Source: Bradymonadia bacterium (GTDB taxonomy: Bacteria; Myxococcota_A; Bradymonadia; UBA7976; UBA1532). From it: a stretch of 64,000 nucleotides of DNA. The position numbers and the translations under genes are program-made. Under the pieces are notes generated by a model, which had not been told where the DNA came from, made no database searches, and saw only the letters and a program-made list of their open reading frames with translations. The DNA lies in assembly GCA_046290225.1 (NCBI GenBank), contig JBKAGE010000037.1, positions 320,001 to 384,000 of the forward strand, in the 5' to 3' direction. Below, one piece after another: positions 52,257 through 56,043 of the stretch. The stretch's first letter is position 1. The number at the start of each line of letters is the position of its first letter.

Positions 52257-52907
52257 ATGCTTGGCAACTTGTTCAAGAAGAAAGACCACGCCGAATTCGA
52301 AGCGGTGGCCATGCCCCACGCCGACGCCCTCTACGGCGCCGCTCTGCGCATGACCCGCGATCCCACCCGCGCCGAAGACCTGGTGCAGGACACCCTGCTT
52401 CGAGCGTACCGCTTCTGGCACAAGTTCGAGCAGGGCACCAACATCAAGGCGTGGCTGTTCCGCATTCAGCTGAACACCTTCATCAACAAGTACCGTAAGA
52501 AGCAGACCGAGCAGACGGTGATGGACGATCGCGACATCCACGATCTGCTCCACCGTCACGCCGCAGAAGAGTCTCGGGTGATCCCCCCAGACACCCGCGA
52601 CGAGTTCTTCAAGAAGGTGCTCAGCGACGACGTGCTCGCCGCCCTCGACAGTCTGCCCTTCGACTTCCGTATGACGGTGGTGCTCGCCGACATGCACGAC
52701 TTCTCGTACAAAGAGATCGCCGAGATCCTCAACTGCCCTGTGGGCACCGTGATGAGCCGCCTGCACCGCGCACGCAAGCTGCTGCAGGCTCAGCTCTTTG
52801 CCTATGCCGTCGAGAATGGCATCATTCAGGCACCTGAGGGCGTCACCGCCGACAACGTCGCCGATCTCGACGCCTTCCGCCGCCGCCGTAAAAAGGCCTC
52901 TGCCTGA
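52257..52907 (+). CDS. ECF sigma-70 factor
   Basis: AEDLVQDT, TNIKAWLFRI, SYKEIAEILNCPVGTVMSRLHRAR. Confidence 0.95.
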   Translation: MLGNLFKKKDHAEFEAVAMPHADALYGAALRMTRDPTRAEDLVQDTLLRAYRFWHKFEQGTNIKAWLFRIQLNTFINKYRKKQTEQTVMDDRDIHDLLHRHAAEESRVIPPDTRDEFFKKVLSDDVLAALDSLPFDFRMTVVLADMHDFSYKEIAEILNCPVGTVMSRLHRARKLLQAQLFAYAVENGIIQAPEGVTADNVADLDAFRRRRKKASA

Positions 52908-52923
52908 GAAGGGCCCTCACCTG

Positions 52924-53715
52924 ATGTCGACTTCAAAGATCAGCTGCGCAGACTTCCGCCAGTTCATCGATCCCTACCTCGACGGTGAGTTCGACGAGCG
53001 CGACCGGGCCGACTTCGACGCCCACGCCGCGGGCTGCCCCGACTGCCGCCAGACGCTCGAGCAACACATCTGGTTCCAGCGCAACATCAAGCGCAACCTC
53101 GCCGAGCCACAGTCGATGCCCCCGGCGGCCCGAGCCAAGCTCAGGGCCCGCCTGCACATCGCTCAGCAGCCCGAGCGCCGCGCCCGCTGGGTCAAGCGCC
53201 TCGCCCTGCCAGTGCCCGTGCTCGCCGCAGGCGCAGCGTTGCTGCTCATCACCCCCCTCACGGGCTTCACCCCTGTGGTGGACGACGTGGTGGAGCAGCA
53301 CAATCAGACGATGCCTGTCGAGGTGCCCAGCGATCAGGCCAACGAGGTGGATCAGTGGTTCAAGGACAAAGTGCCTTTCGCCATGCACGCCCCCCGATTC
53401 TCTGATCAGCGGGTCACGCTGCTCGGCGGTCGCCTGAGCCAGCTACGCAGCCCCATCGACGGTGAGCCGATGCAGAAGGCCGCCTACCTGATGTACGGGG
53501 TGGGCCGCGAGAAGCTCACGGTGCTGGTCTTCGAGGGCAAGCAGCTCGATCTGAGCAAGTTCGGCACTCAAACCCGCCTCAAGAACCTCGAGTTGTCGAT
53601 CCTCGATCGCGGCGACTACCGCGTGGCGATGTACCGTAAAGACGGGCTGACTTACGCGGTGACCTCACGGCTGCCCGAGTCGGAGATGATCCGATTGGTG
53701 AGCACGGCCCTTTGA
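52924..53715 (+). CDS. Zinc-finger (zf-HC2) transmembrane anti-sigma factor
   Basis: C..YLDGE..HAAGCPDC, TM segment, LLGGRL periplasmic domain. Confidence 0.88.
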   Translation: MSTSKISCADFRQFIDPYLDGEFDERDRADFDAHAAGCPDCRQTLEQHIWFQRNIKRNLAEPQSMPPAARAKLRARLHIAQQPERRARWVKRLALPVPVLAAGAALLLITPLTGFTPVVDDVVEQHNQTMPVEVPSDQANEVDQWFKDKVPFAMHAPRFSDQRVTLLGGRLSQLRSPIDGEPMQKAAYLMYGVGREKLTVLVFEGKQLDLSKFGTQTRLKNLELSILDRGDYRVAMYRKDGLTYAVTSRLPESEMIRLVSTAL

Positions 53716-54124
53716 GCGGACGACCGTGCCTTCGGCACCGTCTGTAGCGGACGGTCATCGCCTTTGGCGACAGCCTGTAGCGGACGCCTCGCCTTCGGCG
53801 AGAGCTGTAGCGGACGCTCATTTGCCTACGGCAAATTCCCTGTAGCTTTTTGAAGATCACTTTGGGGGTGTGGGCTCGTCTACCGCGAACATTGTGGCCC
53901 TCTGACGGACCAGTTCCGGCGTAAGCCCCTACCCTGGTCCGGAAGCCCACCAGACACACCAAAAGTCTCTTAGAAAGCTACAGCTCAGGCTGCCGGAGGC
54001 AGACTCGGCGTCCGCTACAGCTCTGCAAGGCGAAGCCGAAGCAAGCGTCCGCTACAGACGCAGCGCAGCGAAAGCTTTTGCTGGGTCGTCCGCTACAGGC
54101 GGCCCGAAGGGCGGCCGTCCGCTC
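53714..54124. repeat. Intergenic dyad: inverted arrays of 12-bp CTGTAGCGGACG repeats with hairpin spacers around a structured core
   Basis: CTGTAGCGGACG at 53742, 53775, 53805; reverse complement at 54009, 54046, 54087; terminal GAGCGGACG/CGTCCGCTC; inner CTGTAGCTTT (53840)/AAAGCTACAG (53974). Confidence 0.93.
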
Positions 54125-54126
54125 CA

Positions 54127-56043
54127 TCACTCGTACCAAATCACATAAGCACTCAACGCGATGTCCCCACCTCGGGGATCCCCGCCGTTGAACAGCCCGC
54201 GGTACGTCAGTGTGCTCTCCGCGCCTGGCGTGATGTGATCCGTGATGTCCAGGCGGATGAGATCCACCGGTAAGCCCGGGCACCAGTAAGCGCGCCCTGG
54301 CGCCCAGTTGCCCCACTGACCTGGGGGCACCCCCTCACCCGCCCGCTCGGCGCAGCCCTTGAGCGTGCCTGCCTCCATGGCCGAGCTGATCTCGGTGAGC
54401 TCTACGTCATTGAGCGTGAACTGGTGGCGATGATCACACCACTCCGCGCAGTTGTCCTGCGGGGTCTGGCCGTGGCCGCTGATGATGGTCACCAGCTCCG
54501 CGCGGCGGGTGCCCTCGGGGGCCGTGAAGGTGAAGGGCTCCCGGGTGTTGTAGTTCTCGTCGAAAGCCCCGCCGGTGAAGGCGAGAGCGCCGCCAGTGGC
54601 CGAGCCCTCGGGGCCAGCGGCGGGCATGGCCTCGGAGAAGCGCAGGGTGATGCGGGCGTTGCGCTCAGTCTTGCGCTCCCAGTCGGGGCCCATCTCGATG
54701 AAGAACCGCTGGGTGCCGCCTGCCCGGAGCAGGGCGAGCATCGGCGAGATGTCCTGAGCCCACCGGCGACGACCACGACGCCAGTAAGGCGTGATCCAGC
54801 GCATGATCTCCTGCCGCTGGGCGCACTCTTCGTCGAGGCAGAGCGAGATGCGGGCGATGCGATCCCACTCACTGCAGGCGAAGGGGTGCTGGAACGGGCA
54901 GGTGACCTGAATGTCCACCTCGAGGGTGTTGAAGGCCGCCATCTCTTCAGCGGATGGCAGCTCCACCTGCTCGGTGAAGACCCGCTCGGTCACAGCCCGC
55001 TCAAGCAGCGTCACTTCGGTGATCTCCGAAGTGTCGGCGAGCCGGGCGTCGAGCGAGGAGAGGTGGTTGTAGAAGTGGCCGGCGTACGCCGCCATTTCGA
55101 AGTTCGGCGGCTGCCCCACCACAGGCGAGAGGCTGCCCACAGGGTCGAACTGTTGATGCCGGTTGATAGCGAAGACGTCGGGCAGCGGCGCCTGGGCCAT
55201 GCCACGGTCACCGAGATCGACAACGCCCTCGTCAGAGAACATGAAGTCGAGATAATTGCGGGCGAAGAGCCCGGCGCTGCCCTCGATCTCGGTCATGCGA
55301 TCAGTGACGAAGTGGAAGTGGCTGCGCCAATACGCGCGATCGGCTGCGTCGGCGACGTTGGCACCGAGGAACCGGTCGAAGCCATCTCGAAGCGTGTTCA
55401 TGCGGGCTTCGCGCTCGGCGAGCTCTTCTTCGAAGCTGGTGAAGAAGTAATGCACATTGCGCGGGCCCTGCTGATACAGGGGGGAGAGATCGCTGCCCCA
55501 GAGCTGATCGCCCTGCCATGGGCCTCCACCGCCCTGACGTAGATCCTGGAAGTAGTTCAGGAACACGTAACTCTCACAGCCGCTCCAGTTCTGGGTCAGC
55601 TGCCATGGGCCGTCGAGGGTCTGCACGGTGAAGTCACCGGCGATGTCGCCAAAAGCCGTGCCGCCATCCGCGGTCTGAAATGGTGCCTTGGGCAGGTCGA
55701 GATCTTCACATGGCCCATCGGCGAACATGACCTCACCGCCACCGGCGCCGCCCATCATGCCGCCCATGGGCTCACCACCGGCGCCGCCCACGGGCTCACC
55801 GCCCATGCCTCCGGCACCACCGCCGGCCTCACCGCCAGCGCCACCGGAAGGCTCGCCTCCCGCGCCGCCCACGGGCTCACCACCCATGCCACCGCTGGCT
55901 TCGGCATCGGGCGCTGGCGCCCCACCGCTGTCGCCATCGTCATCGCACCCAACTACGACACAGGCTGAGATCATCAGGGCCATCGGCAACTTGCCAAACA
56001 TCACGCGCAACCTCATCCGCAACTCCAGAGCATCTGGGTCCAC
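54127..56043 (-). CDS. Peptide-N-glycosidase F-related lipoprotein
   Basis: VVGC lipobox, GGAGGEP linker, CSEWDR, RWITPY, ISGHG..CAEWC, GQWGNW..GRAYWCPG. Exact start uncertain. Confidence 0.8.
   Translation of the reverse strand: MDPDALELRMRLRVMFGKLPMALMISACVVVGCDDDGDSGGAPAPDAEASGGMGGEPVGGAGGEPSGGAGGEAGGGAGGMGGEPVGGAGGEPMGGMMGGAGGGEVMFADGPCEDLDLPKAPFQTADGGTAFGDIAGDFTVQTLDGPWQLTQNWSGCESYVFLNYFQDLRQGGGGPWQGDQLWGSDLSPLYQQGPRNVHYFFTSFEEELAEREARMNTLRDGFDRFLGANVADAADRAYWRSHFHFVTDRMTEIEGSAGLFARNYLDFMFSDEGVVDLGDRGMAQAPLPDVFAINRHQQFDPVGSLSPVVGQPPNFEMAAYAGHFYNHLSSLDARLADTSEITEVTLLERAVTERVFTEQVELPSAEEMAAFNTLEVDIQVTCPFQHPFACSEWDRIARISLCLDEECAQRQEIMRWITPYWRRGRRRWAQDISPMLALLRAGGTQRFFIEMGPDWERKTERNARITLRFSEAMPAAGPEGSATGGALAFTGGAFDENYNTREPFTFTAPEGTRRAELVTIISGHGQTPQDNCAEWCDHRHQFTLNDVELTEISSAMEAGTLKGCAERAGEGVPPGQWGNWAPGRAYWCPGLPVDLIRLDITDHITPGAESTLTYRGLFNGGDPRGGDIALSAYVIWYE

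Follow-up and report, generated by a model that had tools for sequence, protein, structure and literature searches.

The 411-bp element that fills positions 53714–54124 of the window—by which we mean the whole 64,000-nucleotide stretch of bradymonad DNA under analysis—is one copy of a genome-wide, GTAG-tagged family of the REP type that probably spread as single-stranded DNA handled by a RAYT-like HUH nuclease. The family itself is real and well structured, and is a variant of the REP/REPIN kind rather than a new kind of system. It is unusually legible, combining a strict 12-mer junction, hairpin modules that stand in a fixed order and share a conserved mismatch, and a full series of sizes with no detectable transposase. 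GTAG-type REPs are thereby shown in an uncultured marine lineage of Myxococcota, with features that are unusual for REPs: ordered head-to-tail cassette arrays, a composite of around 400 bp as the copied unit and a RAYT/Y1 gene that was not found in the assembly.

The element occupies the gap between two convergent stop codons. To its left, a gene encoding 305 amino acids (52798–53715, forward strand) ends in a TGA (53713–53715) that shares 2 nt with the first bases of the element; to its right, the stop codon (54127–54129) of a gene encoding 638 amino acids (54127–56043, reverse strand) follows 2 nt past the element. Relatives have homologues of the left protein that match it up to residue 305 of 305, which shows that this gene is not truncated; homologues of the right protein extend to residue 637 of 638. 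For one protein of the window, the nearest named records are MAGs of Myxococcales, Nannocystaceae, Sandaracinaceae and Polyangiaceae, at no more than 60% identity. On the forward strand, the element opens with GAGCGGACG, a terminal repeat that is the 12-mer in its end form (53714–53722), and continues into a left arm (53723–53839) with the grammar ABCD, in which the cassettes A (53723–53741), B (53754–53774), C (53787–53804) and D (53817–53839) are separated by the 12-mer CTGTAGCGGACG (53742–53753, 53775–53786 and 53805–53816). A truncated innermost repeat, CTGTAGC (53840–53846), precedes a run of T (CTGTAGCTTT starts at 53840), and an asymmetric core, annotated on the forward strand, spans 53847–53976. 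The features beyond the core lie on the reverse strand: the truncated innermost right repeat, which reads GCTACAG on the forward strand (53977–53983; AAAGCTACAG at 53974–53983), and a right arm (53984–54115) that mirrors the left, has the grammar AFGE from the outside in, and holds the cassettes E (53984–54008), G (54021–54045), F (54058–54086) and A (54099–54115) separated by 12-mers that read CGTCCGCTACAG on the forward strand (54009–54020, 54046–54057 and 54087–54098). The right terminal repeat, CGTCCGCTC on the forward strand, closes the element (54116–54124).

Direct reading and a listing of inverted pairs bear out the mirrored 12-mer arrays described in the initial annotation, together with its eight spacer hairpins, which all differ in sequence and are each present as it had written them, and its remark that the element fills nearly the whole gap between the convergent stops. 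The inverted pairs between the arms are 12–17 nt in length and 100% complementary. Within the 64-kb window the 12-mer has 6 matches against 0.35 expected, and a count of 6 was reached in 0 of 100 shuffles. As a single strand of DNA, the 411-nt element folds at −139.2 kcal/mol, compared with −80.2 ± 4.3 for shuffled sequences (z = −13.8), and the minimum-energy fold pairs arm on arm.

The genome to which the window belongs (8.58 Mb in 83 contigs, 99.4% complete) contains 197 occurrences of the 12-mer, 105 forward and 92 reverse, compared with 1 + 1 for a control word of reversed order. The matches group into 45 clusters, 28 of which span 300–520 bp and show the pattern +++---; all units of an arm point the same way, and the direction changes once per cluster, at the core. 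Approximately 28 copies are full length and have a common asymmetric core of around 130 bp, and BLAST with this core gave 27 matches in the genome, in both orientations and at 74–100% identity, whereas the flanking DNA outside the element ends cannot be aligned between loci. In total, the family comprises 248 units with 82 distinct spacers and a unit period of 29–41 nt, at around 60 loci if clusters with two or more members are tallied. Other forms include half arrays truncated by other DNA, palindromes of several units that have no core, and minimal forms of 20 bp and 32–37 bp with intermediates, which have the same ends, GAGCGGACG...CGTCCGCTC. The family thus ranges from 20-bp palindromes to composites of around 450 bp whose ends are identical in kind. 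The suggestion of a REPIN/MITE-like element was therefore right in kind, as this is a dispersed family with the GTAG mark of REP elements, and the search for further copies that had been proposed with it, made here by 12-mer count and core BLAST, reveals a genome-wide family instead of a single copy.

Some loci also adjoin or contain other repeats. The core of the copy at C78:372535–373094 is interrupted by an insert of around 160 bp with inverted ends of around 20 bp, and the end of this insert has a single other partial match in the genome (C34:361117). At C82:48365–48900, a half array is continuous with a fold-back repeat of another type, around 200–330 bp in length, which gave well over 100 BLAST pieces (pieces, not loci) on around 35 contigs.

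We typed the cassettes of 26 full copies, oriented by their cores. Read from the outside in, most left arms carry A or F, then A, B or F, then C, c, H or I, and finally D, and most right arms carry A, then A, F or B, then G, H or C, and finally E; several arms are shorter, longer or have a different end. This fixed order on both arms, together with the oriented core and the unrelated loci, establishes that copying involves the whole composite of around 400 bp as one unit. Both subfamilies of the core show the same arm patterns, and the arms are therefore mosaic. At the element ends (n = 52), conservation starts abruptly at the G of GAGCGGACG: GCGGACG is present in all 52, with G at position 0 in 42, A at position 1 in 44 and T at position −1 in 25. 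Most terminal repeats have GAG and not GTAG, and GTAG or GTA precedes a few of the outer ends.

Each unit consists of CT-GTAG-CGG followed by an imperfect hairpin with the foot ACG / C(T)GT and then by the next CT, and such hairpins are predicted for almost every one of the 82 distinct spacers. Among the 25 distinct spacers of class 1, positions 1–7 counted from both ends pair in 25, 25, 3, 21, 24, 25 and 25 of 25, respectively, with two to three types of pair at positions 1, 2, 4, 5 and 6 and a C·C mismatch at position 3 in 21 of 25. Slid controls show far less pairing at most positions, with exceptions of 23/25, 20/25 and 24/25 (shift +1) and 19/25 (shift −2), and the bases of the hairpin loops vary freely. 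The predicted hairpins are conserved in structure, not in sequence. Dinucleotides beside the 12-mer covary inside the spacer and not between the arms, which hold different cassettes; local hairpins are therefore the supported structure, and pairing of arm on arm is assured for the 12-mers only. The rod of stacked four-way junctions that the initial annotation had envisaged accordingly survives in part: it equals the minimum-energy fold, but covariation backs local hairpins, with pairing between the arms restricted to the 12-mers.

As predicted structures, the units fit the substrate of a TnpAREP enzyme of the Escherichia coli group 2 type, with CT at a GTAG-headed hairpin and a C·C mismatch that is kept. 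The E. coli enzyme is described as cutting single-stranded REPs at a CT located 5′ or 3′ of the structure, and as requiring both GTAG and an irregularity in the stem (PMC8266576). In the present family, the CT in front of each GTAG would be the cleavage site of a RAYT-like HUH nuclease. Because CT stands before every GTAG, it also stands after every hairpin, and cutting and rejoining at CT would shift exactly one module, which could give rise to the mosaic arms and the variable number of units. The family would thus probably have gained, lost and swapped hairpin units as single-stranded DNA, and its minimal forms may derive from longer palindromes by loss of the centre. After insertion, transcription from either neighbouring gene would yield an identical series of forward units, which by analogy with E. 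coli REPs would serve as RNA hairpins at 3′ ends.

The enzyme was not found in the assembly. A profile for Y1/RAYT (PF01797) had 0 matches in the genome, in a search for which the control was positive in 6 of 14 genomes, and tblastn with the open frames around Y1_Tnp matches in the loci of ten relatives identified no Y1 homologue there; the only two tblastn matches obtained stem from neighbouring, unrelated frames. The Y2_Tnp profile also returned 0 matches, in a search whose control matched nowhere. Y1_Tnp matches are present in 18 of 40 relatives. As the assembly is divided into 83 contigs, a gene that lies inside repeats could be unassembled. The lack of a visible transposase noted from the window alone thus extends to a genome-wide search for RAYT by profile and tblastn, and the suggestion to look for a RAYT or TnpA gene flanked by the 12-mer led nowhere, with no Y1 gene found in this genome. 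RAYT-like loci of two relatives were considered and set aside: that of G008 has no REP-like flanks and matches no NCBIfam family, and that of G025 has low G+C and is not comparable. The genome contains four TnpB-like open frames of 382–429 amino acids (PF07282; C35:142955–144112, C35:40085–41233, C64:11728–12876 and C45:37122–38411) and no detectable Y1 TnpA; the 12-mer does not occur in the flanks of these four genes. Against spread as single-stranded REP DNA stand the failure to find Y1/RAYT, the GAG outer ends, the lack of near-identical copies and arms that are unremarkable as RNA. Two more features fit poorly: head-to-tail arrays, which the survey of GTAG REPs rates as rare, and a distribution that did not extend to the 40 relatives examined or, with this architecture, to the public collections scanned.

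The 12-mers are far better conserved than the sequence that they surround. Of 148 slots in 26 copies, 139 hold the exact 12-mer and the other 9 each deviate from it at one position (0.5% per site), whereas cores differ from their consensus at 13.5% per site (pairwise identity of 0.62–0.95, median 0.77), an approximately 26-fold difference. The divergence of the cores indicates that the copies are old or fast-evolving, and no two copies are near-identical (best pairwise core identity, 0.95), which gives no sign of recent movement. Either selection or conversion maintains the 12-mer; gene conversion or binding of a host protein could also account for its high conservation.

Element ends are found close to genes. 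Thirty of the 52 ends face the 3′ end of an open frame with high GC3, and 27 of these 30 stops (TGA in 20 cases, TAG in 10) are located at −3 to +13 nt from the boundary. The gene context of the 26 copies is convergent in 9, tandem in 8, divergent in 2 and undetermined in 7. In the C80 copy, the TAG of the gene is supplied by the element’s own first repeat; the orthologue in six relatives ends 0–5 codons past the same LPW motif (LPF in one), with no element downstream. A crude gene call over the whole genome, restricted to convergent pairs less than 700 bp apart, served as a control: the 226 pairs have a median stop-to-stop distance of 31 bp, 80 are separated by 15 bp or less and 18 overlap. 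Such tight spacing indicates that closeness to stops is at least partly a property of a compact genome, and we dropped targeting of stop codons as a needed explanation. A second group of convergent spacers measures 300–520 bp, and many of these are filled by repeats of the 12-mer family or of another family.

These data bear on the possibility, which we consider unlikely, that the element now serves mainly a host function and is kept up without a transposase, with the 12-mer as a site for a host protein or the arrays as two-way modules for 3′ ends (transcript stabilizers, terminators or ribosome-stalling hairpins next to the stop). The near-invariance of the 12-mers in a genome with no detectable RAYT argues for it, as does the clustering of adjacent stops at the boundaries; REPs within 15 nt of a stop have been reported to stall ribosomes (PMC12306157, citing its reference 17). 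Owing to the mirror design, transcripts that enter from either side also meet the same forward units. However, neither arm, when folded by itself as RNA, clearly exceeds shuffled sequences in stability (z = −2.4 and −0.7), a short spacer between convergent genes is nothing unusual in this genome and a search of 40 relatives did not find the family. A fuller version, to which we give a similarly small chance, holds that a REP family was retained as a working part after loss of its RAYT, with the 12-mer as a putative site for a host protein or RNA partner and the whole as a two-way control module for 3′ ends rather than a fossil transposon. If so, the mirror design would itself be selected, and transcripts from either convergent gene would meet the same ordered set of four hairpin modules a few bases past the stop. 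The idea that the 12-mer is a DNA-uptake sequence was dropped, because its copies are clustered and not dispersed.

Improbable in our judgement is that the paired changes in the hairpins reflect copying at the level of DNA, either by quasi-palindrome correction or by conversion between copies, instead of selection on structure. Cassettes that are common to arms and copies, in a mosaic that extends across both core subfamilies, are consistent with such copying; yet a process that perfects stems should erase the C·C mismatch, which is kept in 21 of the 25 distinct class-1 spacers even as their stems differ.

A lower probability still attaches to descent from a DDE transposon of the Mu/Tn7/Tn402 type, in which case the element would be a MITE and the 12-mers putative transposase-binding sites. 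Transposases of this type bind several directly repeated subterminal sites at each end, a pattern matched here by the four to five direct 12-mers per arm, each arm being the mirror of the other in this respect; ends of the form TG...CA make up about half of the total, and the composite is copied as a unit. The inverted ends are present, but no direct repeat of flanking bases was seen at the 52 element ends, so that the absence of a visible target duplication first noted for the window holds across the copies of the family, and neither a longer element with these ends nor a solo array with a partner in reach was found in the genome. An array of double-strand sites does not require covarying hairpin spacers with a conserved mismatch, and the family grades down to 20-bp palindromes.

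The further suggestion of a gene for a large structured RNA, folded as a branched rod, is highly improbable: the stability of the whole-element fold and the covarying stems favour it, but a near-palindrome folds equally on both strands, which leaves the z-score uninformative on RNA, and Rfam yielded no match, a search for promoter-like sites was negative, the orientation of the core relative to a single neighbouring gene is random (7 versus 9) and no consistent fold of the cores was found. The Rfam 15 scan of positions 53000–55000, with E values up to 10, returned seven matches at chance level (best, 21.5 bits against a gathering threshold of 82; E = 0.46), and RNAalifold on the 26 aligned cores reached only −17.7, mostly from the CTGTAG/CTACAG ends, with no convincing common structure.

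Evidence on the distribution of the family comes from public sequencing runs (small shares of six DNA runs and no RNA run), relatives and public collections. Near-identical contigs are present in the marine metagenome runs X2–X4. In run X1, a metagenomic contig of 5,657 nt, around 84% identical, spans both flanking genes, with 207 letters in place of the window’s 569; its spacer therefore measures around 49 nt and the 411-bp element is absent there, although a minimal form of the family may lie inside this spacer. A contig of run X4 crosses the left junction with 8 differences, which shows that a close strain carries the element. The comparison with an empty site proposed in the initial annotation was thus achieved through X1 but not by synteny, as the two flanking genes occupy separate contigs in each of 24 relatives. 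In 40 relatives the 12-mer occurs at control level and the family was not found, and none of 48 loci with orthologues of the right-hand gene has more than 4 CTGTAG/CTACAG words. A two-12-mer search of public collections gave 6 genome and 12 metagenome loci, none with the mirrored-arm architecture; these 18 are mostly coding tandem repeats, with a few other REP-like tandem arrays. The minimal palindrome of 18 bp gave 65 single matches over unrelated phyla, which we read as chance.

Other GTAG-headed arrays were encountered in these searches. A Haliangium sp. MAG (NZ_JBNLBH010000066.1; L053:500–1110) carries a tandem array of around 12 units in one direction just past the TGA of a gene; the units are around 50 bp in length, each begins with CCTGTAGCGG and two contain the exact 12-mer. 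This is another GTAG-headed array in Myxococcota, of different architecture. In distant taxa, the 12-mer heads unrelated non-coding tandem repeats in a Lamprocystis MAG (L055), where it forms the hairpin CTGTAGCGGACGGTCCGCACAG, and in the metagenome contigs L068/L069 and L076. These heads may represent a recurrent GTAG-REP motif or chance finds in very large collections. We found no paper that links bradymonads with extragenic palindromes, and ‘Myxococc-’ is unmentioned in the REP surveys searched.

Among known repeat systems, MITEs of the Correia/NEMIS type and the pneumococcal BOX elements are non-coding, have terminal inverted repeats and are dispersed between genes, and BOX has a variable number of internal modules. 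The present family differs from them in lacking both a target duplication and an insertion sequence related to it, and in repeating its ends internally with hairpin spacers. The BIMEs of E. coli (PMC2817692; PMC8266576) are described as mosaic clusters of REPs with specific linkers, which is a likeness; BIMEs alternate REP and inverted REP, whereas the regular alternation is missing here, orientation being constant along an arm and reversed once, at the core. Closer are the REPINs and their RAYT (Bertels and Rainey 2011, PMC3116915; PMC3337134), in which two inverted REP parts and a spacer fold back and are copied as a unit. Here too, two inverted parts and a spacer are copied as one, but each half is an array of several units and not a single REP, the whole measures around 400 bp and a RAYT was not found in the assembly.

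REP elements are abundant, and how they spread and why they persist are described as open questions (PMC8266576). With its CT-bounded units and its lack of a detectable transposase, the family suits a test of two points: whether CT sites are where units are gained, lost and exchanged, and whether a host by itself can maintain REP arrays. REPs are palindromes of 20–50 nt with GTAG in front (PMC8266576), and the features of the class are present here, including a small palindromic unit, GTAG, complementary stem variants, high copy number and an extragenic location mostly downstream of open reading frames (ORFs); the cognate RAYT gene of a REPtron, which REPs usually flank, was not found in this genome. 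The closest parallel is the GTAG REP super-family (Di Nocera, De Gregorio and Rocco 2013, PMC3733652), for which complementary stem variants, head-to-head pairs with conserved spacers, locations less than 20 bp from ORF 3′ ends, frequent supply of TAG stops and missing REPtrons are reported. The novelty implied by the initial annotation is weakened to that extent, given that GTAG REPs, their head-to-head pairs with conserved spacers, their siting at ORF 3′ ends and their supply of TAG had already been described (PMC3733652); the sequence itself belongs to no family named in the available text of that survey. The likeness extends to small palindromic units with a GTAG head, sub-families with alternative complementary stem residues, a head-to-head arrangement around a conserved spacer, a distance of around 20 bp or less from ORF 3′ ends, a terminus that gives a TAG stop and a REPtron that may be missing (PMC3733652). 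Where the present family departs from the super-family, as PMC3733652 describes it, is in arms that are head-to-tail arrays of 4–5 units—a form rated there as absent or under-represented—and in its fixed cassette order, its core of around 130 bp in the place of the spacer and its outer ends with mostly GAG.
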